A DNA stretch of 64,000 nt from Clostridia bacterium (GTDB lineage Bacteria; Bacillota; Clostridia; UBA1212; UBA1255), in assembly GCA_017935905.1 (NCBI GenBank), contig JAGBGO010000009.1:575-64574 (forward strand), read 5' to 3'. Positions within the stretch are counted from its first letter, which is position 1; the number at the start of each line of letters is the position of its first letter. Shown piece by piece: positions 13,753 through 51,575 of the stretch. The position numbers and the translations under genes were made by a program. Under the pieces are notes generated by a model. The model saw nothing but the letters and a program-made list of their open reading frames with translations, ran no database searches and had not been told where the DNA came from.

Positions 13753-13796
13753 AAAAGTAGAGCCTTTCAATCAACATAAATCCTGCAATCCCGCAT

Positions 13797-13841: not shown

Positions 13842-13863
13842 ACCGCTGAAAGAAGGTGGATAC

Positions 13864-26661: not shown

Positions 26662-26670
26662 AACGACTCC

Positions 26671-28212
26671 TTACAATACAACGGGAACTGCAGAAATTCT
26701 GCCAAAAGATCCAATTTCAGTGGTATTCACCTTATTCCACGCATATAACTGCTCACCGGAAGTATATAGCACCACACTCATTTTTTCATCAAAGAACACC
26801 TGCTGTCCTACGTCTCCGGAAATACGCGTCATCTCTGTTCCCTGAACGTAATCCAAAGAAATACGGTTATTGCCGTACGTACGTAGCAAGAAATACCGAT
26901 CATCCCGAAGTCCGTACAACTGGACTTCTTGCTTCCAATCGTATTGACGAATGGAATTATCGCTGTGTACCAAATACATTTGTTCTCCGTCTTTCGACTC
27001 AAATCCCACAAAAGGTTTGTTTGGATATTGGTAAATAAGACCGGTATTGGACGATACTTTCACCGACTTACGATTCACGTCGTAAATATTGTAACGGTGC
27101 AGCGTACCGTCAAACAACTGATAGTACAAATAATCCGATTGACTGTCAAAAAAGAATTTCGTATCCGGTCGGCAGGAGAGCTGCGCGTCTGCACGCCCAC
27201 CTTCCACGCTTTGGTATACTTTAACAGAACCATCATTTTGGGTCACAGTAAACAAAATCATATCCCGTTCTTCAGAATAGTACAAAATTTGCTTAATGTC
27301 TTTTGCAATCTCTCGTATCTTGCTTCCGTTAAAGTATACAAGTTTGCTTTGATTGTCCTGTCCGCCTATTACAATATAGCGGTCTGTCGTATGTTTACTA
27401 TACGTAACGTACTGTGTAGAACCGCTGACCAGGGACGCTTGAACCGTATTGGTAACAGCGGTTCCGCCATCGATTCGCGTCAGGATTTTCCCCTGCTCAC
27501 TCATAATACAAAACTCGTTTCCCTGGTAAAAACAAATTCGATTTCCGGATTGGTTAAAGGAGAAAAGTTTGTCTCCATTGATCCGCACATCGTAGCGTTT
27601 CACACTTCCGTCTGCATTCGCCAAACACAACCGTGCACTTCCGTCTTCTTTCTTGTAATCTTCCAAGAACAGAAGTCTGCTTCCGTTGCAAACGTAATAC
27701 TGCTCCGGCAGAATGTCTTGTTTTTCCGAAAGTACACCGGAGGCCGTTCCGTTGTAATACTTTAAGTTCCCATTCCGATCTGCATAATAGATCACTTTTC
27801 GCTGATCTGTCAAAATAAAGTCGCGAACTTCTTGCAAGATTTCCATACGGGTATTGGCCTTAACATCATAGCGGTACAAGATACCGTTTCTGGTATAATA
27901 CACGTGATTCTGTGCAGCATCACATACACTCTGTGATACAGAATCGTCAATTTCACGTACGTCTAAATCACTGTCAGGAATTACGTAAAGCATACCCTCT
28001 TCATTTTGGAAAACAAAGGGGAACATTTCATGCCGTCCTACGCCGCCATTTTTACGACCGCCAATGCGCACAAATCGTCCGGGCAGTAACGCCAAAATTG
28101 CAACTACAATCGCCGCCACAAGCACAACAGAAACGAAGAAAATAACGTTTCCCCGTCGGTCTCTGGCAACGTAGCCTTTGCGTCTTTCTATGGGTGTGTT
28201 CATCTTCTCCAT
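26671..28212 (-). CDS. Membrane-anchored extracellular protein, probably beta-propeller, function unknown
   Basis: Single N-terminal TM then short beta-strand-rich repeats; start at MEKMNTP after GGGGAG. Confidence 0.6.
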   Translation of the reverse strand: MEKMNTPIERRKGYVARDRRGNVIFFVSVVLVAAIVVAILALLPGRFVRIGGRKNGGVGRHEMFPFVFQNEEGMLYVIPDSDLDVREIDDSVSQSVCDAAQNHVYYTRNGILYRYDVKANTRMEILQEVRDFILTDQRKVIYYADRNGNLKYYNGTASGVLSEKQDILPEQYYVCNGSRLLFLEDYKKEDGSARLCLANADGSVKRYDVRINGDKLFSFNQSGNRICFYQGNEFCIMSEQGKILTRIDGGTAVTNTVQASLVSGSTQYVTYSKHTTDRYIVIGGQDNQSKLVYFNGSKIREIAKDIKQILYYSEERDMILFTVTQNDGSVKVYQSVEGGRADAQLSCRPDTKFFFDSQSDYLYYQLFDGTLHRYNIYDVNRKSVKVSSNTGLIYQYPNKPFVGFESKDGEQMYLVHSDNSIRQYDWKQEVQLYGLRDDRYFLLRTYGNNRISLDYVQGTEMTRISGDVGQQVFFDEKMSVVLYTSGEQLYAWNKVNTTEIGSFGRISAVPVVL

Positions 28213-28217
28213 ACCAT

Positions 28218-29174
28218 TCACTCCCCTTTTCTGTCCGGTTTGTAGTCTGCATCCAAGGCAGAAAGATCGTAAGGCGTTGCCTGGTATACATAGTAATTCA
28301 ACCAATTGGCGTACAGTAAGTATGCGTGACTGCGCCACTGATGATAGGGTTTCTCTTTTGGATTATCTCCGGGAAAATAATTCTCCGGAACCGCAATTTC
28401 CAGCCCCTTCTTTACGTCTCTTTCATACTCAGTTTTCAGCGTTTCACGATCGTATTCCAAATGTCCGGTAATAAAGATTTGTCTTCTGTCGTGAGACGCA
28501 CAAATGCAAAGACCGGCTTGATCGGAAGCAGCCAATACGTCTAATTCCGGCATCTTCATAACCCGCTTCAAATCATTTCCGGTATAACGGGAATGGGGTA
28601 CGTAGAAAATATCGTCAAAGCCCCGAAGCAAACGGGCTCTCTTATTGAGCACTCGGTGGGGATAGACACCGAACAATTTCTTGCCCAAATCCACTTTGGG
28701 CACACCGTAGTGATAATACATCCCCGCTTGCGCACCCCAACAAATATGGAGTGTGGTCGTTACGTTTTCTTTCGACCACTTCATCAGTCTGCAAAGTTCA
28801 TCCCAATATTTCACTTCTTCAAAAGGCATATTTTCAACAGGCGCCCCTGTGATAATCAAGCCGTCAAACTTTCGATCTTTAATATCATCAAAGGTCCGGT
28901 AAAACGTATTCAAATGACTGATCGGCGTATTCTTCGACGTATACGAAGCCGGGTGCAGAAGCGTCACCTCCACCTGCAAAGGTGTATTACTCAAAAGACG
29001 TAACAGTTGTGTTTCCGTTACAATCTTGGTAGGCATTAAATTCATAATCGCAATCTGCAGTGGACGAATATCCTGAGAAAACGCCATTTCTTCGTTCATC
29101 ACGAATACGTGCTCATTTCTGAGCACTTCCATAGCGGGCAAATGATCGGGAATCTTAATTGGCATGTTCATCAC
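28218..29174 (-). CDS. metA: Homoserine O-acyltransferase, MetA family, probably acetyl-CoA specific
   Basis: QDIRPL, NLMPTK, ITGAPVE (Glu at the specificity position, typical of acetyltransferases), [14 protein letters not shown]. Confidence 0.95.
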
Positions 29175-30204: not shown

Positions 30205-30238
30205 AAAAAGGGACCAACGCATTCGCGCGGTCCCTTTT
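30205..30238. terminator. Bidirectional terminator between convergent ylbJ and the ABC locus
   Basis: AAAAGGGACC...GGTCCCTTTT stem with A/T tracts on both sides. Confidence 0.8.
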
Positions 30239-30263
30239 GTACAACTTACTGATCTAACAGATA

Positions 30264-31607
30264 TTAGTCTTCAGCGAGAGAAGCCCATTTCTCATTTGCA
30301 GTCTTCTCAATAACACCCATCTTAACAGACAAGTCAGCACCTTCTGCAACAGCTACCAAAGAAGATTTCAGGTTCTTCTCGATGATTTCTGCAACTTCAG
30401 GAGGAAGAATGCACTTAAACTGACCAATTACAGCGTACTCGTCAGCCATGTAGATGTTTGCATCCCAGTACTTCTTGCTCCAGTCATCTTCAGCATGTCT
30501 CCAGAAATCAGCATCCTTCAAGGAAGCCAATACAGGAACGGAACCACCGTCTTGACCGTTGAATGCTGTCTGACCGTCTTGTGTGTAGAAGAACAGTGCA
30601 AAAGCAGCAGCAGCGTTCGCATTACGTGTACCATTGTATACGCCTACACCGGAGGAACCGCAACCAAACATAGGATTGTTTGCAAGAGGCAAGTGAATCA
30701 TATCCCACTTGATTTCTTTATCGTCATACTCTAAACCGTAAGTATCAACCTGAATATATACGTGTTGTCTGAATACAGGATCCTTCTCCTCAAACAAAGT
30801 ATTCGGACCAAGGTTCAAGTTAATCGTACCGTTGTTGTACTCATCAAAAAGTTGTTCGATTGCATCCAACATACCATCAGACGTAAAGTCTACCGTACGG
30901 TTAGCTGTGTTGTACCAGTTCTTTACACGACCATTCTCATCAGTCTTACCAACTGCGTTCAAAAGCGGAATAAATACCGGTCCGTATGCCAAATCAACGT
31001 AAGCACCATACTGCGTATCATTGGTAAGTTTCTGACATACTTCAATGAACGTATCCCAAGTCCAACCGGGAGCAACGTCCTCAGTCAATCCGGCTTCAAA
31101 AAGCGCGTCTTGGTTGTAAGTCATGATCATCTGGTTGAAGTCACGCGCTACGTAGTAGTACTTACCATCGATCATACCTGCAGCATAGATACCGGAGTAA
31201 ATATCATCCGTATCAATCTTAAATGCCTGCATGTAGTGATCCAAAGGCATCAATGCATCCTGTGTCTTTGCATAGTTGTAAGCTTCAGCTTCTGCAAAGT
31301 AGAATACGTCACCGATGCTGTTGGCGGAAATACGCTGATCTGCCTGCGTCGTCTTGTAGTCATAATCTCTTACAACTTTAGCATTGGGATACTTGGCAAT
31401 AAATGCATCAATATATGCATTTGCTGCCATCTTCTTGTTCTCTGTGTTTGCTTCGTAAGAGAACTTGATGGTACCGGAAACCTCGGGAGCTACTTCAAGA
31501 TTTTCGAGCTCACCGGATTGCTTCACACGACCACCGCAAGCAGCCAATCCACATACTGTCAAAATAGCAAGTAACAATGCTAATGACTTTGTGATTACTT
31601 TCTTCAT
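30264..31607 (-). CDS. Family-1 extracellular solute-binding lipoprotein (sugar ABC)
   Basis: Lipobox LAAC; IGDVF, LMPLD, YYVARDFNQMIMTYN, WTWD, WDMIHLP. Confidence 0.85.
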   Translation of the reverse strand: MKKVITKSLALLLAILTVCGLAACGGRVKQSGELENLEVAPEVSGTIKFSYEANTENKKMAANAYIDAFIAKYPNAKVVRDYDYKTTQADQRISANSIGDVFYFAEAEAYNYAKTQDALMPLDHYMQAFKIDTDDIYSGIYAAGMIDGKYYYVARDFNQMIMTYNQDALFEAGLTEDVAPGWTWDTFIEVCQKLTNDTQYGAYVDLAYGPVFIPLLNAVGKTDENGRVKNWYNTANRTVDFTSDGMLDAIEQLFDEYNNGTINLNLGPNTLFEEKDPVFRQHVYIQVDTYGLEYDDKEIKWDMIHLPLANNPMFGCGSSGVGVYNGTRNANAAAAFALFFYTQDGQTAFNGQDGGSVPVLASLKDADFWRHAEDDWSKKYWDANIYMADEYAVIGQFKCILPPEVAEIIEKNLKSSLVAVAEGADLSVKMGVIEKTANEKWASLAED

Positions 31608-31641
31608 TATAAAACCTCCATTAAAACAGATTTATAGATAT

Positions 31642-31669
31642 ATAATATCATATCAACCAAAATTGTCAA
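31642..31669 (-). promoter_or_regulatory. Internal promoter for the last binding protein gene
   Basis: TTGACA (31669-31664), 16 bp, TG-A-TATTAT (31647-31642). Confidence 0.55.
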
Positions 31670-31738
31670 CGGAATAAGAAGTGTTTTTGAACAATCGTTA
31701 CAATTTGTTCGCACCCTATTCACAAAATATCTCGCAAC

Positions 31739-33175
31739 TTACCATTTCGTATTTGCAAGGTCTTGAATGGTTTGCAAGTAAGCATCAACGTGCGTGCCGG
31801 CTCCGGCAGATGCACAATCCTTCAACGCTTTGCCCATAGCCGCATCAATTTCTTTAGCAGCATCCAAGGACATATATACGCTTAAATTTGCTGCGTAGTC
31901 ATATTCGCTAAATAAGGAGAACACAGAGGTATTCTTGCCGGACACCGGATAGTCTCTCCAGAAACGTGCATGATTTACAGAAATGAGGGCAGGGACACGA
32001 ACACCGGAAAGCCCCGATAAATGTGTTGCGGCTTCGTGAACCATAGCATAAAGTGCAAGTTGCGCACAAATTTCGTCTCGCATAGCTTGCGCATTTTCCT
32101 CTTCCTCTTGGGACAAATCCCGAACGCGGACAGCCAAGCCTAACGTCTTAACGCCGATTCTAACGTTCGTAGCACCGTCCTTTCCTTCAAAACGAGGCAG
32201 ATGTGCAAACTCCCATTCAAAGCCTTCCTCCGCTAATTTCTTCTCCCATTTGGAAAGATCTGCATGAGAAAGAACGACCATACCATATTCAGAAAGTTCT
32301 TCCGGCGTAATTTGATCCGGCGTCTTCTCTGCAACGTAACCGGTGCGGATAAAGGAATCTACTAAATATTCCAAACCCTGTGCAACCTTTGCATCCGTAA
32401 GATTTAAAACCTTATCTTCAGGGGTTGCACCCTCCATTAAAATATCCATACCCTGGCTCATAGCAAAAGATCCCCAAATCGAGAAATCTGCGTAATCCAT
32501 TGAAATCGGATTCTTGCAACCGATCTTCTTCAGCGCCTCTGCATAGGAAAGCAAATCATCCCAGGTCCATTTATCTTCCGGTACTGTAAGTCCCGCTTCC
32601 TGTAACAAGTCCAAATTGACCCAAACTGCTTTGTTTTCGTATTCCGTAGGAATCATATACATCTTATCTTGGTACAAAGCAGACTGGTATGCAGCGCCAA
32701 AGAAAAGTTCTTCGGGAACCAATTTTGAATAGCTTCCGGACGTATACTCAATCAATCCGTCTAAATAAGGCGTAATATCGAGAACGTATCCCTTCTCAAC
32801 GTAAGTAGCCAAACGATCTGAATCCACCAGGAAAACGTCACCAATCGTTCCATCCTCTACACGCTGATCCAAAGTAGCAAAATATTCTTCATAAGAAATT
32901 GCACTGTCTTCAGAAATTTCAACCCCCGGATATTGTTGATTAAAATCACCGATAAAGTTAAATGCAGAAGCATCGTAACCCTCTGTTGAATAGGTTGAAA
33001 ACTTAATGGAGCCGGCTAACTCATCCGGCTGCGGTACGGGCGTCCGTAAACCACCGTTCTCCGTGGAAGTAGCACTTTCACTGCTTCCCTGACAACCTAC
33101 AGCCGTAATAGAAATTAACAAAGCAACAATTACAAGTAGAATTCTATAACTTTTACTTTTCATTTTGATGCTCAC
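31739..33175 (-). CDS. Family-1 extracellular solute-binding lipoprotein (paralogue of 30264-31607)
   Basis: Lipobox AVGC; IGDVF, VWVNLDLLQEAGL, WTWDDL, WEFAHLP. Confidence 0.85.
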   Translation of the reverse strand: MSIKMKSKSYRILLVIVALLISITAVGCQGSSESATSTENGGLRTPVPQPDELAGSIKFSTYSTEGYDASAFNFIGDFNQQYPGVEISEDSAISYEEYFATLDQRVEDGTIGDVFLVDSDRLATYVEKGYVLDITPYLDGLIEYTSGSYSKLVPEELFFGAAYQSALYQDKMYMIPTEYENKAVWVNLDLLQEAGLTVPEDKWTWDDLLSYAEALKKIGCKNPISMDYADFSIWGSFAMSQGMDILMEGATPEDKVLNLTDAKVAQGLEYLVDSFIRTGYVAEKTPDQITPEELSEYGMVVLSHADLSKWEKKLAEEGFEWEFAHLPRFEGKDGATNVRIGVKTLGLAVRVRDLSQEEEENAQAMRDEICAQLALYAMVHEAATHLSGLSGVRVPALISVNHARFWRDYPVSGKNTSVFSLFSEYDYAANLSVYMSLDAAKEIDAAMGKALKDCASAGAGTHVDAYLQTIQDLANTKW

Positions 33176-33181
33176 CTTTCA

Positions 33182-34195
33182 TTATTCAATAACGCCCAGA
33201 CGCTCAATACCGGCCGCCAGCTTCTTCTGTCCCAAGATGTACACGATCAACACGGGGAGCATTACCAACAAACAACCTGCAAACAACGTAGGCTCCATCA
33301 TCGCCTTGGCAAAATCAGAAACTTCACCGGAGGAACCCATCATTTCAGCAAAGTAGTATTGAATATTCTCCAATTTCGGTTGAAGAGTCATCATAGTATT
33401 GGAATACATATACATGGGTGCTTCGCAATTGTCATTCCAGTGCCATACAAAGGAGAAGATAAATACGATGGCGGTAGCGGAACGAACCAACGGAAGCATA
33501 ATTTGCATAAATACACGCAAGGGACCTGCACCGTCAATACGTGCTGCTTCATCCATTGCATTTGGAATACGTTGGAAGAAGTACATATAGATCAATGCAA
33601 ACAAAGCACCACGCAGACCCAATCCAAACAAAGTAGGCAACATAACGGGAAGGAACGTATTAATCGAATTCATCGATGCCCACATTCCGTATGATGCAAT
33701 AATGGTAGTTTGGGGCGGAATTAACAAAGCAAGAAGAACCGTTACGAAGATAAAGATCTTGCCCTTGAAGTTAAAACGTCCTAACGCATAACCGATAATC
33801 GCACAAGATACACATTGAAGAAGTGCACTTCCAAGAGATACGATTAAAGTATTCATAAAGGAAGATACAAACTGTGTACCGCCATCATGGGCAGCTTCGA
33901 AACCAAAATACGAAAGACCCTTAAACGCATCTACGTAGTTCTGCCAGTGAATAGCAGAAGGAATCCACTCGATAGAGGGGTCCATATAGTCCTTGTAAGA
34001 CATCATGGACGTCGTAATAACGTAAATAAACGGAAGGATAAATAAGTAAGCCAACTCGATCAATACGTAGTACAAGAATATTCTTCCAATAACAAACGTA
34101 ATCTTCTTCTTGGCACGATATCCCAAATTACGGTACCGGTCAATAAGTTCATGAATCTTTCCGGATATCTTACTGAAAATCTTCATCGTAACCAC
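33182..34195 (-). CDS. Carbohydrate ABC permease (MalG-like)
   Basis: FFQRIPNAMDEAARIDGAG EAA loop; FVWHWND. Confidence 0.92.
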   Translation of the reverse strand: MVTMKIFSKISGKIHELIDRYRNLGYRAKKKITFVIGRIFLYYVLIELAYLFILPFIYVITTSMMSYKDYMDPSIEWIPSAIHWQNYVDAFKGLSYFGFEAAHDGGTQFVSSFMNTLIVSLGSALLQCVSCAIIGYALGRFNFKGKIFIFVTVLLALLIPPQTTIIASYGMWASMNSINTFLPVMLPTLFGLGLRGALFALIYMYFFQRIPNAMDEAARIDGAGPLRVFMQIMLPLVRSATAIVFIFSFVWHWNDNCEAPMYMYSNTMMTLQPKLENIQYYFAEMMGSSGEVSDFAKAMMEPTLFAGCLLVMLPVLIVYILGQKKLAAGIERLGVIE

Positions 34196-35076
34196 CTCCG
34201 TGTCAACAATACAAAGATCAGAATAACAAGTAAAGTGGCCAACATGTACATCCAGCTAAGTGCAGAAGCCATACCGTACTTGGTACCGGCACTGGTCATT
34301 TCCTCCAAAATACCCATTACAGGATTGGATACGTCTACAAAAGAGTCCACCAACGCATAAATCGCATTCAGAATTACAAAGGGAGAAATATACGGAAGGG
34401 TTACGTGCCAGAAACTTTCCCAAGCAGTTGCACCATCTAATTCCACTACTTCGTACAAAATAATCGGAACACTTTGAAGCGCTGCAAGGAAGATTAAAAT
34501 TTCAACACTACTGGACCACATAATCGTACCGATCTGTGAAATAATCGATACGTCCATAATCTCACTTAAGAAACCCATTCCTCCGGAAGAAAGCATACCG
34601 GAGAATACGCTAATGGATCCAATGCTGTCACTAAACAAGTACGCCATAATAACACCGGCCAAAATTACAGGGATAAAGAAAATAACACGGAAAACCGTTC
34701 TTCCCGGAAAATCCTGTTTTAATAACACTGCGACGAAAAGTGCAAATGCTACAACAATGGGTACTTTATACAAAGACTGTAAAAAGGAATTGAAAACAAC
34801 CTCGCCCACAGCAGGGTCTTTGATAACGTCAATATAGTTATCAAAACCTACAAAAGTACTTTCCCCGCCAAATCCGTACGGGTCCGTTAATTTTGTAATG
34901 AAGAAACTGGTTCTAACGGACAAGAAAAGAGGAATCAACATGAACCAGATAAAACCAACAATCCACGGAATGGAAAAAGTCCAGCCTTCAATTGTTCTCC
35001 GACGTTCAAAAGAACCGAATTTCAAAGTTGTCTTATGGGCTTGTTGCTTTTTGAGTTTAACTACTTGCTTTGCCAA
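34183..35076 (-). CDS. Carbohydrate ABC permease (MalF-like)
   Basis: FLAALQSVPIILYEVVELDGAT EAA loop; FVGFDNY; TTG start after AAGGAGG. Confidence 0.92.
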   Translation of the reverse strand: MAKQVVKLKKQQAHKTTLKFGSFERRRTIEGWTFSIPWIVGFIWFMLIPLFLSVRTSFFITKLTDPYGFGGESTFVGFDNYIDVIKDPAVGEVVFNSFLQSLYKVPIVVAFALFVAVLLKQDFPGRTVFRVIFFIPVILAGVIMAYLFSDSIGSISVFSGMLSSGGMGFLSEIMDVSIISQIGTIMWSSSVEILIFLAALQSVPIILYEVVELDGATAWESFWHVTLPYISPFVILNAIYALVDSFVDVSNPVMGILEEMTSAGTKYGMASALSWMYMLATLLVILIFVLLTRRWLR

Positions 35077-35090
35077 CTTCTACCCCTCCC

Positions 35091-37598
35091 TTAACCATTT
35101 ACAACCAAATAATTCATAGACGGAACAACGGTACCGTCAGTAAGTGTATAGTCCGTATCGGTGTAGTTTACGTATACGCGTGCGCCACCGGAATACGTAG
35201 TACAGAAAACATCCTTATAAGCATCAACTTGCTCGTGATTTGTAATACGCTCGCAAGCAAAAGGTTGAATCGCCTCAGCCGCCATACGGTAAGCATCGAT
35301 AATTTCATCCTTCAACAAGGAGTACTGTGCCTTAAACAGTTCCAAATAATTGGTATACTGCAATTCTTTCGTTTCTGCTTTTGTAACCTCATAAGAAAGG
35401 TTTGCACCGTATTCCACAGCCTTCAATAATGCGTATTGTGCGCTGTCTTGGTTGTTAATCGGCGCCGTATAATAGTTTACCAATCCATGATATACAATTT
35501 GCATAAAAGGAACGGACTCATCCAAAACAATATGAGAAGAACGATCCATCGGCATATCCATAACAGAGTCTGCGACAGCCGCTGCATAATCGTAACCGTA
35601 ATATACAGAAACGCGATTAAAGGCATTCTTATACTGCTTCAACCAGTCTACGTACTTGTGGGCTGTTTGAATACGAAGCATTGCATTTTCTTCGTTGTAG
35701 TCCGTGTAAAGCATATCGCCTAACTGCTGCAACGTAACACCCTGGGTTTTGTAAGATTCCAGTCTGGAAATACTTCCCTTGAGCAGCTCATTGTTAAAAT
35801 ACTTCGGACTCATCCAGTATCCGGCATAATTGTATCGACCGGAAATCGATACAGATTCGTAATTGAGATAGAAGGAGTTCGGTAACTTAACAACGGAGTT
35901 CCGCAGCGTCGCACCGCTCCATCCATTGGGAGAGCCGTAGATCGTCAACAAATTGTTGTCCAAAGAAATCTGAATTCCCTTGTCTGCCGCCCATTTATTC
36001 AACTTAATCAAACCGCTCTTACCACCAAAATCACTTTCAACTTTATTCTTCGTGGTGGAATTCCAATAATAACCATCCGACGTCCATCCGCGCAGCGTCA
36101 ACGCCAAATCTTTCAAACCGGCTTTCTCTAAATCCTCGTAAATTTCACGAACGTCCTCAAAAGTCGTCATCACTTTAAGCTCATCCAGCACACCACCGGA
36201 AACGGTCTCAGCACCCATCATGAAGCGAAGATCAATAACAGAAGCCGCTTCTTCTAAAGCTTTCTTGTCAACACCCCAAACGGACGACCACTTGTTCAGC
36301 AGCAAAGTACGCGTCTTCTCTGCGACGTCAACGTACGTGAACGCCGTTTCTTTTTTGCTCTCCGAAGCATCAAATTCCGGTTCAGCATCGAAATACATAC
36401 TTTGCTCAACATCACCAATTTGCATATCCGCAATAACCATATCATAGTTAGAACCGGACTTCGAAATTTGGAGTTTGTAGAAATAGCGATAATTGTACTG
36501 ATAATAAATCGAGTAGAACGGTAAATTACGAACGCCGGGGTTCGCAATCTTCAGCGATGCACCAACGTCACCTTGATCAATAAAGGAGGTGATCATATAT
36601 TCTTCATCAACCATACCGTAAGCACCTACAGAAAGGTTCTCGCCTGCAAAGTCAGGTTCAGTAACACGATCAAACGTCGGATCAATACCGTAAACACGCT
36701 TTGAATACTCGTTGTAGTTATTTACTCTGGCAACGTCAAAATAGGTTAATGCACCGGAACCGTCCGGGGATACGTAATAACCGGTATCACCATTTTTATG
36801 GGCACCCAAATACGGAAGTACTGCAAGAGATGTGAGCAAAGGTCTCTTATCATCTTCTTCCCACGCTTCCGTCTCACGCTCCACAATACCGTTTCGCGGA
36901 ACTTTGTATTTCAAGCAATTTCCGTCTAACGTAATCTCAACGGTAAAACGGAGCGCCAGCTCACCCACTTCATAAACCAACTGAACGCCGTCTTTAATGA
37001 AATTTACAGTCTTGGTAACATCATTCATTTGATTGATACCTTTTGTAAATCCACCATCCATACCGGATTTTGTATATCCAATAAAGACAGGAGAAGTGAT
37101 GATCATACCGGTGTCTTTCGCCGTATCATAAAGGGCAAGATTGGAAGCAATTGCCTCCCCTTTCTCATTCGTCAATCCTTCATGCGTAGGCTCCGGATAA
37201 CTGCGGAATACCCGTCCGGTACTTAAATCCACGATTAAGAACAGATCATCTTTGGGAGAGTACTCCAATCGAAGTTTGCCGTTGTCAGCGAATACCGTCA
37301 TACCGGTATCTGAAAGCAAGCTACCTTTCAATCCTTTAGACGTATCCACTTTCTGAGGATCACTGGATACAAGGTACTCATCCGAGAACTCTAAATCGTC
37401 CGGGTTACCAAAAGCAACGCTTAAAGCAACAACCAGCAAAACGACAACCAAAAGAAGGGCCACACCCACTTTAACCAATTTCTTCCAAGATGGTTTCTCG
37501 TGAATTCTCTTTTGTTTGTTCTTCTTTGTTGCCTTCTCTTCTGTAACAACAGTATCGGCAACTTCTTTTTTGTTGTTTTCTGTATTTACATTAGACAA
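35091..37598 (-). CDS. DUF5696-like membrane-anchored protein (predicted beta-sandwich plus TIM barrel)
   Basis: N-terminal TM; GALTYFD, LRGWTSDGY, FGGKSGL, VPFMQIVYHGLV, TTYSGGARVYVNY; the gene context recalled for DUF5696. Confidence 0.72.
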   Translation of the reverse strand: MSNVNTENNKKEVADTVVTEEKATKKNKQKRIHEKPSWKKLVKVGVALLLVVVLLVVALSVAFGNPDDLEFSDEYLVSSDPQKVDTSKGLKGSLLSDTGMTVFADNGKLRLEYSPKDDLFLIVDLSTGRVFRSYPEPTHEGLTNEKGEAIASNLALYDTAKDTGMIITSPVFIGYTKSGMDGGFTKGINQMNDVTKTVNFIKDGVQLVYEVGELALRFTVEITLDGNCLKYKVPRNGIVERETEAWEEDDKRPLLTSLAVLPYLGAHKNGDTGYYVSPDGSGALTYFDVARVNNYNEYSKRVYGIDPTFDRVTEPDFAGENLSVGAYGMVDEEYMITSFIDQGDVGASLKIANPGVRNLPFYSIYYQYNYRYFYKLQISKSGSNYDMVIADMQIGDVEQSMYFDAEPEFDASESKKETAFTYVDVAEKTRTLLLNKWSSVWGVDKKALEEAASVIDLRFMMGAETVSGGVLDELKVMTTFEDVREIYEDLEKAGLKDLALTLRGWTSDGYYWNSTTKNKVESDFGGKSGLIKLNKWAADKGIQISLDNNLLTIYGSPNGWSGATLRNSVVKLPNSFYLNYESVSISGRYNYAGYWMSPKYFNNELLKGSISRLESYKTQGVTLQQLGDMLYTDYNEENAMLRIQTAHKYVDWLKQYKNAFNRVSVYYGYDYAAAVADSVMDMPMDRSSHIVLDESVPFMQIVYHGLVNYYTAPINNQDSAQYALLKAVEYGANLSYEVTKAETKELQYTNYLELFKAQYSLLKDEIIDAYRMAAEAIQPFACERITNHEQVDAYKDVFCTTYSGGARVYVNYTDTDYTLTDGTVVPSMNYLVVNG

Positions 37599-39696
37599 GA
37601 TAACTCAACTCCTTACCAAATTGGAATATAAAGCTAAACATTTGATCAGCCAAACCATATACAATCATAAACAGCAGTACTACGGCAAGAACACCTACCG
37701 CCGTCATAAAGAACACGACAACAGCTTTAACCGGGTGGAAACCGTGTACGGATTTAATACACAGGAATACCAAAAGACCAACCCAAATATAAATGATTGT
37801 GAATACCAAATTATACAAAGACTGTTCATCCAGTGTCAAAGCGTGAGTCAAAATAGACATCGGCAGAATCAAAAACAGCAGCGGCGTATGGCAATAAGCA
37901 CCGCCAATCAAAACGTCTCTAAATCGGCCTTCGCCGTACATAATGGTCGTTACACCGTAGTTCACGATGGAAATCACAACCCAAGGTAATACAGCAATGC
38001 CAATGGTAACCCACGAATTGATAAACTCTAAAGGCTGACCGCCGCGGTAAATAAAGCTTACGCAGTATTCCGCCACAACAGAGAAAATGGTGTATACAAC
38101 CATAATAATAAATGCGTCTGCATAGGAACCTTTATTCTCATAACGAATTTCTTCGAAAGTATCCACAGGATGGCGAATAACACCGCCAAGTCGACCAAAG
38201 AATTGACGAATCGGTGTAAAGAAATTCTCTTTAGGCGGTAAATTGCCTCTCTTCTTTTTTCTCTTACGTGCAATCGTAAGCAGTACAATCCAAAGAATGA
38301 GTAGCAAAACAATCACAGATAAGATAATAGAGAAGTTCTCACGAAGAAACTCTGCACGAATTTCGATAAACGCTTCAGACGCGTTGGCCGCATCCATTGC
38401 ATCGTAGAAATAATTGATTGCAGTATCGTAATCTTCCTCGCGCATGTGGATCATACCCATATTTTGCAATGCAAGGGTATAATAACTGTCCTTATCCAAT
38501 ACGGTCTGCCAGATCGGGAACGCCCTATCATAATCACCGTCTGCGTAGTGCGCATTGGCTTCATGAATTAAATCGGCAAATTCCGTAGTCTTAAATACGG
38601 TAATAGTGCCGGAGCTCTTGTTCAAGACGTAAATTCGACCCATACTGTCCACTTCAATACTGCAAGGCAAGGAAAGCTGACCGTATCCGCTACCGGTGGA
38701 CGAAAAGGCGAACAAGTTCACACCGTTCTCGTCGTATTCATAAATACGACCGTAACGCTGATCCAAAATTAACATATTGTTGTAATTATCCACTGTAACG
38801 TCACAGAAAATCTGGCTTAAAGCGTTTCGGGTATTCAAAAGTGCCTGATCCGCAAAGTTGTAATCTGCATAAGTTACGTCCGTACCGCCGGCATTGATCT
38901 TACGAACCTGGGGCGGTGTAACCGTAGTCGTCGTTGCATAGATGTAAGTATCGTCCGCAAAAATGTTATTAAACGTGTAAGGAAGGGATACGATAGAGCC
39001 TTTTCGATCTTCACGGTTCCACAAAAGTCTTGCAATGGATTCCCACAAAGATAACGTGACTTTGTTCGTACCATAATACTGACGGAACGTACCATCACCG
39101 TCTAACATCAACACACCGTTGTAATCGGCTTCATTTACAACGTACAGATAACCGCGTTCATCTTTCGTTACTCTGTAAGGTGCATAACGGAATTCGGAAG
39201 ACAACAAGTCGCTGGACGGCGTAGGATAGGAATACTTAAAGTTACCATACTTGGTGTATTCAACCAAACGACCGTTACCCTGGTCAGCAACGATAATGGA
39301 GCCGTCATCGTCTACGTAGATACCGGAAGGATCCTTTAACGCAGCCATATCCCCTTCTGCATAAGTAGAAGTGCCTTGGATGATGCGATCAACAGTATAC
39401 AAACCATTCTCATCCGCAGGATTGATTACTACAACACGGTTATTGCCGGTATCCGTAATATAAATCTTATCGTCGGAACCAATAAACATATCCGTAGGCG
39501 TCTTCAAACGGCCTTCTTCCGTGGTTGGAAAGTCAATTACCGTCACAACTTCATAGGGTGCGGGAATTTTCATTGCAACGTTGCCGCTCAAATAATAGCT
39601 GGCGTAGGGTTCCTTTGCTTGAAAGGCAGTTCCTAACGAGAGCACAAAACTGAGCAACAATATTACCATAATCAGTTTACAGAATCTGGTCTTCAT
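37591..39696 (-). CDS. NHL-repeat beta-propeller + TPR-like + Yip1-domain fusion membrane protein
   Basis: Repeated P-x-D/G-x-x-x-D-x-x-G-x-I-Y-I-x-D-x-x-N-x-R units, a helical AIxxWxxVL/ALQNMG segment, then a five-TM Yip1-like C-terminus (VIRHPVDTFEEI, GEGRFRD). Confidence 0.75.
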   Translation of the reverse strand: MKTRFCKLIMVILLLSFVLSLGTAFQAKEPYASYYLSGNVAMKIPAPYEVVTVIDFPTTEEGRLKTPTDMFIGSDDKIYITDTGNNRVVVINPADENGLYTVDRIIQGTSTYAEGDMAALKDPSGIYVDDDGSIIVADQGNGRLVEYTKYGNFKYSYPTPSSDLLSSEFRYAPYRVTKDERGYLYVVNEADYNGVLMLDGDGTFRQYYGTNKVTLSLWESIARLLWNREDRKGSIVSLPYTFNNIFADDTYIYATTTTVTPPQVRKINAGGTDVTYADYNFADQALLNTRNALSQIFCDVTVDNYNNMLILDQRYGRIYEYDENGVNLFAFSSTGSGYGQLSLPCSIEVDSMGRIYVLNKSSGTITVFKTTEFADLIHEANAHYADGDYDRAFPIWQTVLDKDSYYTLALQNMGMIHMREEDYDTAINYFYDAMDAANASEAFIEIRAEFLRENFSIILSVIVLLLILWIVLLTIARKRKKKRGNLPPKENFFTPIRQFFGRLGGVIRHPVDTFEEIRYENKGSYADAFIIMVVYTIFSVVAEYCVSFIYRGGQPLEFINSWVTIGIAVLPWVVISIVNYGVTTIMYGEGRFRDVLIGGAYCHTPLLFLILPMSILTHALTLDEQSLYNLVFTIIYIWVGLLVFLCIKSVHGFHPVKAVVVFFMTAVGVLAVVLLFMIVYGLADQMFSFIFQFGKELSYLV

Positions 39697-39708
39697 GAAT
39701 GCGTCCTC

Positions 39709-40590
39709 CTATTTAATACCCGAGTGTGCCATGGTATCCATAACTCGGCTTTGCTGAATTACGAAAATGATAATACTCGGGAACGTCATAATCAATGCCG
39801 CTACACCGGCGACACCCTGACGGGCGACACCGCCACCAATGGTGGACATAAAGAAACCTAACGTACGAAGTTGTTCTTTGTAAATATAGGTTGTAGACGT
39901 TGCAGATTCATTCCAAATACCGCTAAATGTCAAGATAACGGCGGTTGCCTGCGCGTTCTTCAAAAGCGGAAGTGCAATTTCCGTATACAGCTTCCATTCG
40001 GAAGCACCGTCAATCTTGCCGGCTTCAAAAATTTCATTGGGTACCTGATCCATAAACTGTTTCATCAAGAACAGAACTGTAGGAGAAGCCAATCCCGGCA
40101 AAATATAAACTAAATACGTATTGTCAATATGTAAGGATGTAATAATCAAATAAAGCGGAATACCGGCTGCAGCAGACACAAACATCAAAGCCGTGGTAAC
40201 CAACTTAAACAAGCCATTCTTGCCGGGAAACTTGTGCTTTGAAAGCGGATAACAAGCCATCGTTGTAATCCATACCAAACAGAAAATGTAAGCAACCGTA
40301 ATCAATACCGTATTAAACAAGTAACGGGTAAAAGGTACTAAACTGTTGGCCGTTACCATAGTTAACTGTTTAAAGTTATCAAAGGTAGGGTTAGATACAA
40401 AGAACCGAGGCGGATACAAGAACAACTCCTCCGGTGGTTTAAATGCAGTACACACAAGGTACACCAACGGAAGAAGGAACACCAGTCCACCGATGGTCAA
40501 GAATACAAGGATCACTCGTCCGGCGTAGTCTTTTCTCTTCTTAGCTTTCTTTAAATAATCAACGTCAACTTGAAACATAACCGCACTCAC
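39709..40590 (-). CDS. Carbohydrate ABC permease (MalG-like)
   Basis: LMKQFMDQVPNEIFEAGKIDGAS EAA loop; ELFLYPPRF. Confidence 0.92.
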   Translation of the reverse strand: MSAVMFQVDVDYLKKAKKRKDYAGRVILVFLTIGGLVFLLPLVYLVCTAFKPPEELFLYPPRFFVSNPTFDNFKQLTMVTANSLVPFTRYLFNTVLITVAYIFCLVWITTMACYPLSKHKFPGKNGLFKLVTTALMFVSAAAGIPLYLIITSLHIDNTYLVYILPGLASPTVLFLMKQFMDQVPNEIFEAGKIDGASEWKLYTEIALPLLKNAQATAVILTFSGIWNESATSTTYIYKEQLRTLGFFMSTIGGGVARQGVAGVAALIMTFPSIIIFVIQQSRVMDTMAHSGIK

Positions 40591-41546
40591 TCCTTATCTG
40601 CCAAAATCTTGAAGGCAATACGTCCAAGACCGATAATCAGTAAAGAAAGTACTACTGCAATGGCAGAAGCATAACCTACCTCGAACCGCTGTCCGGAATA
40701 GTCACCTAAGTGCAACATAATCGTCAAACCGGCATCTTCCGGAGTAGGGTGACCTGCAAGGGTAGCACCTACAGAAAGTGCACTGGTAATCTGCAATACG
40801 GCAGCAAACAACATCTGCGGCATCGTTTGCGGGATGTCTACGTACAACAACCGTTGGAAACGAGAAGTAATACCATCTACCGCAGCAGCATCATAAAGCT
40901 CTCTGTCAACACCGCGGAACGCAGCAACGAAAGACAAGAAACCGGTACCTAAGCTGGACCACAAAGCTACGATAATACCTACCGGCATAATCCAATCAAC
41001 GTCTGTCGTCCAAAGAATCGGTTCGGAAATCAAACCTAAATTCATCAACAAAGAGTTCAAGTAACCTGCACTATCGTTGGAGAACATTACGCTCCATACA
41101 ACCGCCATAGCAACACTACTGGTAAGAGACGGTGCGTAGAACGCCAACGTATAAATCGGTCGAATCTTATCCGGAACCTGATTGATGAACCACGCAAGGA
41201 AATAAGACAGGATATAAGCAACCGGACCTACGATAATTGCGTAGTATAACGTGTTACTCAACGCTTTAAGGAACAAAGCATCGTCTACAAACAAGTAAAC
41301 GTAGTTCGTCCAACCGTTAAACACCGGAGCTTCCAATACGTTCCAATAGAAGAAACTAAGCGCAGCAGATGCAATCAGCGGAAGCAATGAGAACGTGATA
41401 AACAGGATATAGAACGGTGCAATCAAACCGTAGGATATCTTGTGATTCCACATTTCATGCATTGTGTAGCCAAATCGCTTCTCTACGTTAAAGAAACGTT
41501 TCTTTGGTTGCGCCGGGGAATTATTTTTGTTCTTATCTTTTGCCAT
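40587..41546 (-). CDS. Carbohydrate ABC permease (MalF-like)
   Basis: FRGVDRELYDAAAVDG EAA loop; FNGWTNY; GYASAIA. Confidence 0.92.
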   Translation of the reverse strand: MAKDKNKNNSPAQPKKRFFNVEKRFGYTMHEMWNHKISYGLIAPFYILFITFSLLPLIASAALSFFYWNVLEAPVFNGWTNYVYLFVDDALFLKALSNTLYYAIIVGPVAYILSYFLAWFINQVPDKIRPIYTLAFYAPSLTSSVAMAVVWSVMFSNDSAGYLNSLLMNLGLISEPILWTTDVDWIMPVGIIVALWSSLGTGFLSFVAAFRGVDRELYDAAAVDGITSRFQRLLYVDIPQTMPQMLFAAVLQITSALSVGATLAGHPTPEDAGLTIMLHLGDYSGQRFEVGYASAIAVVLSLLIIGLGRIAFKILADKE

Positions 41547-41571
41547 AACAAAATGTCTCCCTATCCTTTAA

Positions 41572-44500
41572 TCAGTTTCCAGATTTGCTTTCGCGAAGGA
41601 CGGATCCGCCCTTCTCAGCAATTCTGTACTCTTCTTGTTTACGAATCATTTCTTTGTTGATTTCTTTAATCGCATCTTCCAATGCAACACGTGCATTTAC
41701 ACCCTGCAACACGTGCTGGTTCAAAGCAGTGGTCAAATAACGGCTGGTATAGTAACCGCCCAATACGTTGGGAGATTCCTGAATCCAGGACCATTGCTCG
41801 TAAATTACGTCCAATTCCTCCAAGGTGTAAGGAAGGGTTGCAATTGCATTCTTGTTTGCGGGATTCCATCTGGAAGCCACGCCGAATGTTGCCTCAACTT
41901 CTCTGCCGTATTCTTCCTGTACAGCATCCGAAGCCCACCATTGCAAGAATGCCCAGGTCTCTTCGGGATATTTCGTGCTACTGATAATAATACTACAAGA
42001 AGCGACACCGTTCACAGAACGATCCACAACAGTCTCTCCATTCTCGTTGGTCACTTCGTGGCCGGGAATCGGAAGAATAGCCCATTTACCGTTCAATTCA
42101 GGTGCAGAATACTTTAACTTGCCGTAGAACGTAAGATCCGCAATACCTACAGGCATCTCACCGCTCTTAAATCGCATATAGAAGTCTGCCGCATAAATAA
42201 AGTTGTACTGGAGGAACAAGTCGGAATACTCAACAAACGCATTGTACGCTTCCTCCGAGTCTAAAGCGGATTTCAAACCGTCATAATCATAGAAATCTCC
42301 ACCGTGTTGGTACAAGAACTGGTTGTAGTTTCCCACACCGTAAGGATAGTAGAAACTGTATCCGTCCTTCGTAAGGGCGGGCAGAATGTTGTAAACATCC
42401 TCCCACGTATCCGGTGCTTCAATGTTCAATTCTTCAAAAATGTCGGTTCGGTAGAACAGAGCTTGCCAGTTCTGCGTTTCAGGGAAGCCGTAGTACTGTC
42501 CTTGATACAAGAACGGCATAACCGTACTTTCATAATAAGATTGCTCAAGCAAATCATTGAAACCTAATACTTCATTTCCATTCATTGTAGTGGTTTCAAA
42601 TTGGTTTAAAGGCAGAAGTGCACCACGAACTGCATATTCGAAAGGCGTACCCGTACCAATGGAAATTGCTGCATCCGGAGCCGTACCTGCAACGTAACGC
42701 TGCATGATCAAACCTTCGGAAGATCCTGCAACCATATTCAGATTTACCTTTACGCCGTAATCCGGTGTAAACTGCTCGGCAACTAAGTTACGCATAATAT
42801 CAACGTACTCACGGCCTCTGGATACGTAAACTTCAATTTCCACCATATCCTCGTCTGCCATTTCACGGGTACCTACAGAGGAATAGTCCTTAATGAAAGT
42901 ATCCTTAAAACGAATAACGCCAACGTAGAAATCTTCGAAGAAGGAGGTAAATGCTTCCTCGTATTTGTAATCCTTCACGGACATTACCATATAGTCTACG
43001 GTAATCGCCTGCTCTTTAACCGATACCATGGTGTTACTCAAACCGGTTAATGCATCCGTAATATCATTCAAAGAGGTAGGAACCTGCTCCATATCGTCTT
43101 CCAACTCGTCAAACAATTCCAGGGCAACTTTAACAGCAGATCCGTAGGAAGGAAGCTTGCCGCCGTTGGCCATCTTGATATCTGCATAACATTGTTTAAA
43201 GGTTTTGACGTAGTTCTCCAAATCGGTTTGAAGATTCGGTAAATATTTCTGTAAATCCCAGTCACGGTTCTTATCTACAACGTAACCGCCGGATTCACTT
43301 CTGGAAGAAGCCGTAATCTTAACAATTTGGTTGATCATATTGGAAATAGACTCGATGCTTTCGTCCAAAGATTGGTATGTATGACGCAACGGTCCCAATT
43401 TGTTGGTCAAGGTCATCGTATGCTGACCCTTCTCAAAATAAAACATATAGGGCTTGTTATCTGCATCTTTCAGGCTATCACCAATCCAGCCGTCTGCATA
43501 AGGGAAACAATATTCTTCTAAGTCTTCAAATAAGATTTCTCCGTCGAACAGAATTTCTTTGTAAGATGCAACGTTGGTGGTTAAAGACTGATAACGGAAG
43601 CCGATCTGATACCAGCCGGTTTCAGGAACGTCAAATACCCAATGCACAGCGTCACCGCCGGAACTCCAGCGAGCACCGCCGAATACGTTATATCGAATCA
43701 CTTTGTAAGATGCGGGAGAAGACGCATAGTCGTTGTCATACTCCATACGAAGGCTTACGGAGGAAGAATACTCCGGTACTTCCATTTCAAAGCGAATGGC
43801 ATCGCCGTTATATACTTTGTCACTGTTGCCGATAGAAGCAACGTAATCCTCGTAAGAAACACTCTTACGGGGAGCTGTTAACTGAATACCGCCAATTACA
43901 CCGGGTTGGTTGTAGAATTTCAGTGTAATGGTACGTTGACCTTCCTTTAAGTAGAATTTGTACGGATTGCGGTAAATACCCTCCGGGTTGGTCATGGTGG
44001 TATTCTGCCATCCGAAAATTTCTTGTTGTTTGGGACGAATCTGGTTTCCGGAAATATCTAAATTCTCAGAAAGCTCGGTATTGTAGAAATTGTACATCCG
44101 CTTCAATTCCATATTGGTGGCTTCTTTGAAGGGAAGTTTATTATCTACCATTAAGGAAACGTAAATTTCTGCATCCTTGGCATCCAAAATCAAATAATCC
44201 AAATTCAAGGAGTAAAGACCGCTTTCCTTAACATCTACAACGAAAGTTACAGTCGTTCCCATCTCCGTTGTATAGAACGCATCCGGGAAATCTTTACCGG
44301 TAATAGTCACCCATTCTTCCTTCAATTTATCATAGTACTTGACACCTTGTGCTTCAGCGTCATACACAGGAGCATCCGGGAACTTAACATAGGCATCCGT
44401 ACCCCACTCTGCTGCAGACTTTAAGTCAACCGCAATCGGGTCACCGGTATAATCCTTGTACCCTTTCTCCTGATATTTAGACAACACTTTGCCGTATTGC

Positions 44501-44691
44501 AACAAACTATTGTCCAGTCGGTTCTCCGTCGTCATAAAAGGGTTAAATGCCATGAGATCACTGTTCTCAACAGAGAACTGCTTCGCGCCGGCATCCTGAC
44601 CGCTAAAGAGAGACGCCACTACGATTACAACCAGCAACAGTGCAGCACCTGCGACGGACCAGCGAATAATTTTCTTCTTCTTCTTGTTCAT
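41572..44691 (-). CDS. Giant membrane-anchored solute-binding protein with two N-terminal jelly-roll/CBM-like modules
   Basis: TM anchor without lipobox; duplicated V(K/P)ExGxY beta-sandwich motif; helical region; C-terminal family-1 SBP (GTAPDAA, GALLPL, GFPETQ, APDTWED, PELNGKW); start at MNKKKK. Confidence 0.8.
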   Translation of the reverse strand: MNKKKKKIIRWSVAGAALLLVVIVVASLFSGQDAGAKQFSVENSDLMAFNPFMTTENRLDNSLLQYGKVLSKYQEKGYKDYTGDPIAVDLKSAAEWGTDAYVKFPDAPVYDAEAQGVKYYDKLKEEWVTITGKDFPDAFYTTEMGTTVTFVVDVKESGLYSLNLDYLILDAKDAEIYVSLMVDNKLPFKEATNMELKRMYNFYNTELSENLDISGNQIRPKQQEIFGWQNTTMTNPEGIYRNPYKFYLKEGQRTITLKFYNQPGVIGGIQLTAPRKSVSYEDYVASIGNSDKVYNGDAIRFEMEVPEYSSSVSLRMEYDNDYASSPASYKVIRYNVFGGARWSSGGDAVHWVFDVPETGWYQIGFRYQSLTTNVASYKEILFDGEILFEDLEEYCFPYADGWIGDSLKDADNKPYMFYFEKGQHTMTLTNKLGPLRHTYQSLDESIESISNMINQIVKITASSRSESGGYVVDKNRDWDLQKYLPNLQTDLENYVKTFKQCYADIKMANGGKLPSYGSAVKVALELFDELEDDMEQVPTSLNDITDALTGLSNTMVSVKEQAITVDYMVMSVKDYKYEEAFTSFFEDFYVGVIRFKDTFIKDYSSVGTREMADEDMVEIEVYVSRGREYVDIMRNLVAEQFTPDYGVKVNLNMVAGSSEGLIMQRYVAGTAPDAAISIGTGTPFEYAVRGALLPLNQFETTTMNGNEVLGFNDLLEQSYYESTVMPFLYQGQYYGFPETQNWQALFYRTDIFEELNIEAPDTWEDVYNILPALTKDGYSFYYPYGVGNYNQFLYQHGGDFYDYDGLKSALDSEEAYNAFVEYSDLFLQYNFIYAADFYMRFKSGEMPVGIADLTFYGKLKYSAPELNGKWAILPIPGHEVTNENGETVVDRSVNGVASCSIIISSTKYPEETWAFLQWWASDAVQEEYGREVEATFGVASRWNPANKNAIATLPYTLEELDVIYEQWSWIQESPNVLGGYYTSRYLTTALNQHVLQGVNARVALEDAIKEINKEMIRKQEEYRIAEKGGSVLRESKSGN

Positions 44692-44789
44692 ACGCCCAAC
44701 CTTCCGTAGAATGATAAACATTTATTTGAAGAGACCCTTTATCAACCTATAAAGAATCCCACACATACTTATGCAATCTTAACAAAAGT

Positions 44790-44818
44790 ATTATAGTATT
44801 TTTGTTCAAGAGTGTCAA
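44790..44818 (-). promoter_or_regulatory. Consensus sigma-A promoter of the carbohydrate ABC locus
   Basis: TTGACA (44818-44813), 17 bp, TATAAT (44795-44790). Confidence 0.85.
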
Positions 44819-44838
44819 TAACTCATTTTACGAATTTT

Positions 44839-51306: not shown

Positions 51307-51334
51307 GAGATCCTCTCTTTCTTTCCTTACAAAC

Positions 51335-51575
51335 AAAAAATCTTCCGTCCCGGCCGATTCTTTGCTTTAGAGTCGATCCTTGGGACGAAAGATTGATTTA
51401 CTTCCGCGGTGCCACCCAAATTGACAGCCCCATGCGGGCCATCCTTCTTTGTTGTTCCAATTATGCTGTTTGAACTCCCAGGCGTTCTTCCTGCTTCCTA
51501 CTTTGCATCGCCCTCCCAGCCTGCGGGGCAACTCTCTTTGGTATTTCATGAAACAGTACTCTTCTGTTCAACATT
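51335..51575 (-). promoter_or_regulatory. T-box riboswitch, Asn specifier, upstream of aspS-gatC/gatA/gatB
   Basis: Minus strand: AGTA, AGAGAG and GCTGGGAG stem-I motifs; GAA-G-AAC specifier (AAC at 51486-51484); T-box AATTTGGGTGGCACCGCGG (51422-51404); terminator TCTTTCGTCCC/GGGACGGAAGA plus T6. Confidence 0.93.

Follow-up and report, generated by a model that had tools for sequence, protein, structure and literature searches.

A conserved seven-gene cassette encoding two sugar permease pairs, a Yip1-family protein and a probable GH129-related glycosidase in Gram-positive bacteria

The 64-kb window analyzed here, a stretch of 64,000 nucleotides from the Clostridia bacterium contig JAGBGO010000009.1, carries on its minus strand nine consecutive open reading frames (ORFs; positions 30264-44721; ORF listing and Pfam), which we refer to as g1 to g9 in the order of their transcription (Table 1). 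The first seven of these genes belong to a real cassette that is widespread and conserved in Gram-positive fibre-degrading bacteria and, it appears, undescribed. What distinguishes this cassette is its fixed seven-gene architecture, into which a Yip1 protein and a GH129-like protein are integrated, and the use of a single giant solute-binding protein (SBP) with carbohydrate-binding modules (CBMs) that serves two permease pairs. With moderate confidence, we read the locus as a device of the monoderm cell surface for the capture, trimming and import of glycans that would rely on an ATPase provided in trans and on a Yip1-NHL protein as its scaffold. An earlier note on this DNA, prepared from the sequence alone, had described a nine-gene carbohydrate-capture locus lacking an ATPase, a glycosidase and a regulator; the analysis reported here revises that description in two important respects, the extent of the conserved unit and the presence of a probable enzyme.

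Gene order and distribution of the cassette

A motif scan with the DUF5696 alignment, DUF5696 being the family to which g5 belongs, against one genome per GTDB species yielded 377 stretches encoding such proteins; 80 loci were taken from these and compared by tblastn with the nine proteins of the window. The genes g1-g2-g3-g4-g5-g6-g7 are found on one strand and in the same order in 66 of the 80 loci. The remaining 14 end at contig edges and are yet colinear, and not a single violation of the order was encountered (0/80). The order of the seven genes is thus conserved far beyond chance. The earlier note had named conserved gene order as a test of its proposal and had placed the block in other Bacillota as well; the order passed this test, and the block recurs in every related locus that we examined.

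The gene order persists down to approximately 25% protein identity, and it does so in Clostridia, Paenibacillus, Chloroflexi and an actinomycete. Median identities to the proteins of the window amount to 27% for g5, 30% for g4, 36% for g1 and 34-45% for the permeases, while the closest relative (L022) shares 69-97% identity over g1-g5. The hosts comprise uncultured Clostridia from the rumen and gut, Oscillospiraceae, Ruminococcus (including R. flavefaciens) and Lachnospiraceae, along with a metagenome-assembled genome (MAG) of the Peptococcaceae, Paenibacillus isolates, a Chloroflexi genome and a MAG of the Streptosporangiaceae. The rumen and gut Clostridia, Ruminococcus and Paenibacillus among them point to a link with plant fibre. 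Six extra loci were found by starting from DUF5696 proteins that are either the most divergent or considerably longer (713-2300 aa); according to the Pfam labels of the source database, they possess the same cassette, and even the 2300-aa protein (L087) is still encoded inside it. The DUF5696 profile (PF18952) matches 5,907 protein clusters formed at 50% identity (E <= 1e-3). Many of the DUF5696 proteins among the matches listed have 1200-2500 aa and hence far exceed g5 in size.

While nine genes are indeed present in the window, as the earlier note had it, the conserved core is smaller. Genes resembling g8 occur in 27 of the 66 complete loci and those resembling g9 in 18 of them; g8 is a lineage-restricted addition to the core, and the copy number of g9 in the relatives varies from 0 to 3. 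Most loci of Ruminococcus, Oscillospiraceae and Lachnospiraceae possess no SBP besides g1 within 10 kb. Since most relatives lack an extra SBP, the conserved unit is limited to seven genes, among whose products are a single SBP and two permease pairs. Searches of the accessible literature for DUF5696, for PF18952, or for a block combining Yip1 with sugar permeases or glycoside hydrolases found nothing relevant, in line with the statement of the earlier note that no mechanistic description of the block was known.

The DUF5696 protein as a relative of GH129 enzymes

The g5 protein is a full-length member of the DUF5696 family: it scores 432.8 bits with the Pfam profile PF18952 (cutoff 25.6) and covers model positions 2-612 of 612. 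It begins with a basic cytoplasmic tail followed by a single transmembrane helix (residues 38-63), and the body of the protein therefore faces outward. In the AlphaFold2 (AF2) model (mean predicted local distance difference test [pLDDT] 83; predicted template modelling score 0.85), the anchor helix is followed by an N-terminal beta-sandwich, a TIM barrel at approximately residues 420-775 and a C-terminal beta domain. This is the three-domain layout of the GH129 enzymes, and it is also the one described for the 3,6-anhydro-D-galactosidase DagB (PMC5698469). When the model was compared with the PDB by Foldseek, the GH129-like DagB (5OPQ; E 9e-33) was retrieved first, followed by NagBb (5WZN; E 1e-25), an alpha-N-acetylgalactosaminidase of GH129, and then by GH101, GH36 and GH31 structures. 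TM-scores, normalized to the target, were 0.69-0.75.

Profile comparisons lead to the same two enzymes. A search of the PDB sequences with the DUF5696 profile again placed the chains of DagB and NagBb first (E ~1e-3), and a 65-residue piece of NagBb exceeds the PF18952 cutoff of 25.6 with a score of 34.4 bits. Full-length NagBb (634 aa) was recovered from gut metagenome contigs, with Asp435, Glu478 and Trp398 at their published positions, and an hhalign comparison of the DUF5696 alignment with NagBb and seven of its homologues returned a probability of 95.6% (E 1e-8) over 480 columns. As judged from these profile alignments, g5 is homologous to NagBb, the founding enzyme of GH129. The statement of the earlier note that the locus contains no glycosidase can consequently not be upheld: by Foldseek, by hhalign and by its score with PF18952, g5 is a GH129-related three-domain TIM-barrel protein. 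The relationship is a distant one that emerges by profile and fold methods only; a single-sequence search of the PDB with g5 gave no match. Since the similarity between the single sequences of g5 and NagBb is not significant, CAZy might place g5 outside GH129 proper. An attempt to find bridging sequences through a representative search was abandoned, as all 150 proteins listed were close DUF5696 members, and a word-index search with the NagBb fragment retrieved two fragments only.

In comparison with NagBb and DagB, g5 shares their three-domain layout but is only about 16% identical to them and does not conserve the acid/base residue of NagBb. It differs from them further in being an outward-facing protein with an N-terminal membrane anchor whose gene is always located between those of ABC permeases. 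The acid/base residue of NagBb, Glu478, aligns to Tyr666 of g5, and the region of the nucleophile (NagBb Asp435; DagB Asp486) is gapped in the alignment, with the invariant Asp633 positioned a few residues off. This tyrosine and the ambiguous alignment of the nucleophile, together with the fact that we found no assayed member of this DUF5696 branch in the literature, would fit a protein that is not a hydrolase at all, be it a non-catalytic pseudoenzyme serving as glycan-binding protein or receptor, or an enzyme of different chemistry such as transglycosylation. We regard this as very unlikely. Across 226 diverse family members, Asp306, Asp547 (Asp or Glu), Gly627, Asp633, Arg642, Pro697, His704, Asn715, Glu729 and His788 are essentially invariant, and such constancy of Asp633, Glu729, Asp547, Asp306, His704, Asn715 and Arg642 is what one expects of an active site. 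Moreover, DagB also lacks the acid/base residue of NagBb and is still active (PMC5698469). We thus regard g5 as belonging to a divergent branch related to GH129 and as probably acting as a glycosidase, in which Asp633 would be the best candidate for the nucleophile.

Transport proteins, promoter and setting of the locus

Pfam detects the SBP_bac_1 domain of g1 at residues 642-936 and hence only in the C-terminal third of this large protein. Its AF2 model (pLDDT 87) reveals a transmembrane helix (13-39), two CBM35-like beta-sandwiches (approximately 90-285 and 300-441), a helical bundle (443-570) and an SBP domain of the CUT1 type (573-1031). The two beta-sandwiches are alike and have the motif VPExGxY...DGxxPF in common; the Pfam match to CBM_35 is weak in g1 itself, and precomputed CBM_35 matches exist for several of its homologues. 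By Foldseek, the SBP domain resembles oligosaccharide-binding CUT1 proteins, and Lin1841 is among its sequence matches in the PDB. The true start of g1 is probably Met11 (44691), which is conserved in 90% of the aligned sequences and is preceded by GGAAGG. An extracellular SBP_bac_1/8 domain, as is typical of CUT1 systems, is present in g1 (573-1031), g8 and g9. A lipobox is present in g8 and g9, which the earlier note had described as lipoproteins; g1 possesses a transmembrane or signal anchor and no lipobox, and its assignment needs to be corrected in this respect. A prediction of the substrate from the SBP relatives was rejected, as the ligands of the best solved relatives are mutually unrelated.

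All four permeases (g2, g3, g6 and g7) score above the Pfam gathering threshold of BPD_transp_1; in NCBIfam they are nearest to UgpA/UgpE, MalF/MalG and GlcT/GlcU, and all remain below the equivalog cutoffs. With 27% identity between g2 and g6 and 24% between g3 and g7, the two pairs are, by sequence divergence, old and not recent duplicates. An EAA-type coupling loop is kept in each of the four proteins, and both pairs should therefore couple to an ATPase. A motif search of all 64 kb detected neither an ABC signature nor an ABC-type Walker A motif, so that the absence of an ATPase claimed in the earlier note extends to the entire window, and no MalK/MsmX-type ATPase of the kind used by CUT1 systems is encoded there. 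Among the 80 loci, only that of Paenibacillus sp. 2RAB27 (L041) has an MsmX-like ATPase beside the cassette; the corresponding gene (1797-2945), which encodes a 382-aa MsmX/MalK-like ABC ATPase, is located directly upstream of that for the giant SBP.

The g4 protein consists of a signal peptide, a six-bladed NHL beta-propeller, TPRs, one transmembrane helix (448-480) and a Yip1 domain. Its membership in the Yip1 family (PF04893) is indicated by a score of 47.6 bits (cutoff 28.6) over residues 505-676, and about five hydropathy segments at residues 523-691 correspond to the five-helix core of Yip1. Its ectodomain matches six-bladed NHL propellers, including the sensor domain of PknD, and consensus TPRs. 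In Ruminococcus, Oscillospiraceae and Lachnospiraceae (L036, L040-L080, L082), the NHL-TPR portion (~500 aa) and the Yip1 portion (~210 aa) are encoded by adjacent separate genes; they are fused in the clade of the window and in some Paenibacillus. This fusion and fission points to a joint function of the two halves. That a Yip1 protein can be the partner of an ABC transporter is exemplified by YknW in the YknWXYZ system (PMC4887032).

The locus could also represent an ordinary co-transcribed sugar operon, whose two CUT1 importers would work independently of each other and would share with a surface glycosidase their regulation but no complex. The NHL-Yip1 protein would then serve another purpose, for instance in the quality control of proteins or as a lectin of the cell surface. 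Every part is of a known type, the two pairs are only 24-27% identical and could carry different substrates, the extra SBPs come and go across lineages, and Gram-positive polysaccharide utilization loci (gpPULs) with several transporters are known (PMC5320581). We nevertheless assign only a limited probability to this explanation. An order of seven genes that is invariant in 80 plus six loci, across phyla and at about 25% identity, is unusual for modules that are merely co-regulated; the DUF5696 branch to which g5 belongs was never found outside the cassette in the loci sampled; and most lineages provide a single SBP for two pairs. The strict synteny and the fusion and fission of NHL and Yip1 would rather fit a coupled surface machine.

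The promoter of g1 matches the sigma-70 consensus in 12 of 12 positions, and 43 of the 80 loci (among L003-L032 and L049-L080), some of them from clades at 25-30% protein identity, have the perfect TTGACA-17-TATAAT arrangement upstream of g1. In the clade of the window, an alignment of 30 sequences gives the consensus TTGACACnGTTGCACAAAAAnTnTATAATAnTTTTGTTTAnTTTGCAYAAA, in which conservation extends beyond the hexamers; TTGCAYAAA occurs twice, and ACAAAA and TTTTGT form an inverted repeat around the -10 box. The promoter of g1 is the only site of this kind in the window. Its flanks look like a putative operator for a regulator that would be encoded elsewhere. No cre site was seen by eye in the leader of g1. 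A second sequence with a 12/12 match (37810-37839, minus strand), situated some 210 bp ahead of g5 and still within the 3' end of g4, was dismissed as a promoter; it matches in only 8-10 of 12 positions in the relatives and is therefore probably due to chance.

The nine genes, the gaps between them, the two promoters and the terminator that the earlier note had delineated were all borne out (Table 1). From g1 to g8, the intergenic distances are 25, -4, 12, -8, 14, -13 and 6 bp, and 131 bp separate g8 from g9. T and A runs flank both sides of the terminator hairpin, whose stem contains a bulge, and it was overlooked by the automatic scan for this reason. An Rfam scan of the window yielded no match.

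Table 1. Genes and regulatory features of the locus in the 64-kb window
Feature	Position	Strand	Details and basis
g1, giant membrane-tethered SBP	41572-44721	-	1049 aa; Pfam, AF2, Foldseek, PDB sequence matches
g2, MalF/UgpA-type permease, pair 1	40587-41546	-	Pfam BPD_transp_1, NCBIfam; EAA-like loop DAAAVDG
g3, MalG/UgpE-type permease, pair 1	39709-40590	-	Pfam BPD_transp_1, NCBIfam; EAA loop EAGKIDGA
g4, NHL-TPR-Yip1 protein	37591-39696	-	701 aa; Pfam, hydropathy
g5, type-II-anchored extracellular DUF5696 protein, probable GH129-related glycosidase (by sequence and model)	35091-37598	-	835 aa
g6, MalF-type permease, pair 2	34183-35076	-	Pfam BPD_transp_1; EAA-like loop EVVELDGA
g7, MalG-type permease, pair 2	33182-34195	-	Pfam BPD_transp_1; EAA loop EAARIDGA
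g8, lipoprotein CUT1 SBP	31739-33175	-	Pfam SBP_bac_1/8; lipobox AVGC
g9, second lipoprotein CUT1 SBP	30264-31607	-	Pfam SBP_bac_1/8; lipobox
Promoter region of g1	44745-44830	-	-35 at 44818-44813, -10 at 44795-44790; TTGACA-17-TATAAT
Operator-like flank in the spacer		-	TTGAACAAAA
Operator-like flank, second	44787-44769	-	TTTTGTTAAGATTGCATAA
Promoter of g9	31642-31669	-	TTGACA-16-TATTAT, 11/12, extended TG
Bidirectional intrinsic terminator, common to the end of g9 and the convergent ylbJ-like gene	30205-30243		-21.4 kcal/mol, z = -4.85

Neither a sugar regulator nor a classical carbohydrate-active enzyme is encoded in the 64-kb window; the earlier note was correct on the regulator, which is missing from the locus and its flanks as well as from the whole window. 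In the relatives, AraC or two-component regulators are occasionally found near the cassette. The other genes of the window are of the housekeeping type (murD, gatB, gatA, an aspS-gatC fusion, polA, dnaE, metA, a ylbJ-like gene, argS and others), and the cassette is set between murD and gatCAB on one side and ylbJ and metA on the other. In loci of the R. flavefaciens type, it is adjoined by the S10 ribosomal operon.

These core-gene neighbours (murD, gatCAB, ylbJ, metA, and the S10 operon), the lack of a regulator at the locus and a perfect consensus promoter, suggestive of high expression, would suit a housekeeping salvage function, in which the cassette trims sugars from a glycopolymer of the cell's own envelope or matrix rather than from an external polysaccharide. 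We consider such a function unlikely: the operator-like flanks are conserved, which suggests regulation, CBM35-like modules typically belong to enzymes acting on plant polysaccharides, and the host lineages differ greatly in their envelopes. In addition, some loci are found in mannan or cellulosome-type contexts or next to GH95 genes. The GH95 neighbours occur in seven loci, seemingly of one Oscillospiraceae clade. In L082 (1-16276), a GlcNAc-2-epimerase-family gene, a GH130 gene and one for a CBM35-GH26 mannanase lie directly upstream on the same strand and the cassette is followed by a gene for a CBM65 protein, so that the context in this one lineage is of the mannan type; in L084, dockerin and CBM4_9 proteins are encoded downstream. 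A general assignment of the substrate from the neighbours was discarded, since GH95 is restricted to seven loci of one clade and GH130/GH26 to a few loci, which leaves no general signal. The hosts and contexts of the type seen in L082 and L084 suggest that the glycans derive from plant hemicellulose and bear alpha-linked decorations.

Several other genes of the window deserve mention. A 714-aa ORF (49192-51336, minus strand), located directly upstream of gatA and gatB, encodes an entire aspartyl-tRNA synthetase and, at its C-terminus, a GatC domain (637-708), an apparent AspRS-GatC fusion. At 25549-28338 (minus strand), an internalin-like leucine-rich-repeat protein (370 aa) is encoded beside a 555-aa ORF that has no match in Pfam or NCBIfam. 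A 1257-aa ORF (3379-7152, minus strand) has a C-terminal metallo-beta-lactamase domain as its only domain, with weak ComEC-like and Avs1a-like matches, and some 990 N-terminal residues without a domain assignment. Finally, a family-2 glycosyltransferase gene (minus strand) and a divergent gene (plus strand) with an HGSNAT catalytic domain, of the transmembrane acetyltransferase type, lie side by side at 12322-14565.

Proposed mechanism and relation to known systems

The capture, trimming and import of glycans by the cassette might proceed as follows. With its CBM modules, g1 would retain on the cell surface a poly- or oligosaccharide of plant origin, from which the GH129-like g5 protein would remove an alpha-linked sugar or whose chain it would cut. 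The resulting fragments could then enter the cell via the two permease pairs, the first of which would be loaded by the SBP domain of g1; the second would receive its substrate from g8 and g9 in the lineage of the window and, in lineages that lack a second SBP, from g1 or directly from the enzyme. Both pairs would borrow an MsmX/MalK-type ATPase encoded elsewhere in the genome. The Yip1 protein is envisaged as keeping enzyme and permeases together, be it as a scaffold or as an assembly factor, and a trans-acting regulator may bind the conserved flanks of the promoter.

Several observations weigh against this interpretation, in addition to the tyrosine found at the acid/base position of g5 and the gapped region of its nucleophile. 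The ligands of the best solved SBP relatives (sophoro-oligosaccharides, cycloalternan and arabino-oligosaccharides) are unrelated, and the simple model does not account for the single SBP per two permease pairs present in most lineages. The flanks of the cassette are mostly occupied by housekeeping genes and are not conserved between loci, synteny could reflect co-regulation alone, and a strong consensus promoter in a core-genome setting might just as well suit a housekeeping role.

As a more far-reaching and tentative version, the seven proteins could form a stable 'Gram-positive utilisome', a supercomplex in which the GH129-like enzyme and the two permease dimers are held by the Yip1-NHL protein, and in which the enzyme feeds the second pair directly without an SBP. 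Such a hand-over of the product to the second pair would explain why most lineages possess one SBP for two pairs.

Some CUT1 importers of Bacillota, such as AraNPQ or MdxEFG of B. subtilis, share an MsmX-type ATPase. The cassette resembles them in its MalF/MalG permeases with EAA loops, its SBP_bac_1/8 proteins and an operon without an ATPase gene; it differs in having two permease pairs, a fixed gene order and usually only one SBP, which measures about 1000 aa and carries CBM-like modules, and in the Yip1/NHL protein and the membrane-anchored GH129-like enzyme that are encoded between the permease pairs. The Sus-like 'utilisomes' in the outer membrane of Bacteroidota unite binding protein, glycosidase and transporter in one surface unit. 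The cassette shares this concept, the complex being hypothetical here, but there is no outer membrane, and homologues of SusC and SusD are lacking: Pfam scans of the locus gave no match to a SusC/SusD pair, which sets it apart from the polysaccharide utilization loci of the Bacteroidota type.

As in gpPULs, a probable glycan-degrading enzyme is joined to ABC-type sugar transport in a fibre-degrading Firmicute. However, the definition of gpPULs requires a regulator gene (Sheridan et al. 2016, PMC5320581), and the cassette falls outside it because no such gene is present at the locus or in its flanks. Furthermore, gpPULs are variable and substrate-specific, whereas the composition and order of the cassette are fixed across phyla and include the Yip1/NHL protein. 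The YknWXYZ system of Bacillus is similar in that a Yip1-family protein is encoded together with an ABC transporter and works with it (PMC4887032). YknYZ is, however, an exporter with a membrane fusion protein, while the cassette specifies type I importers and a Yip1 protein with a large NHL-TPR ectodomain.

The uptake of glycans by Gram-positive fibre degraders is far less understood than that by the Sus systems of Bacteroidota. The cassette contains a large, unassayed GH129-related branch, so that annotation pipelines at present recognize no enzyme in the cassette, and since it is carried by cultured Paenibacillus strains, it is directly amenable to testing. If its parts act as a unit, the cassette would represent a new coupling of surface hydrolysis to ABC-type import and would assign an importer role to bacterial Yip1 proteins.

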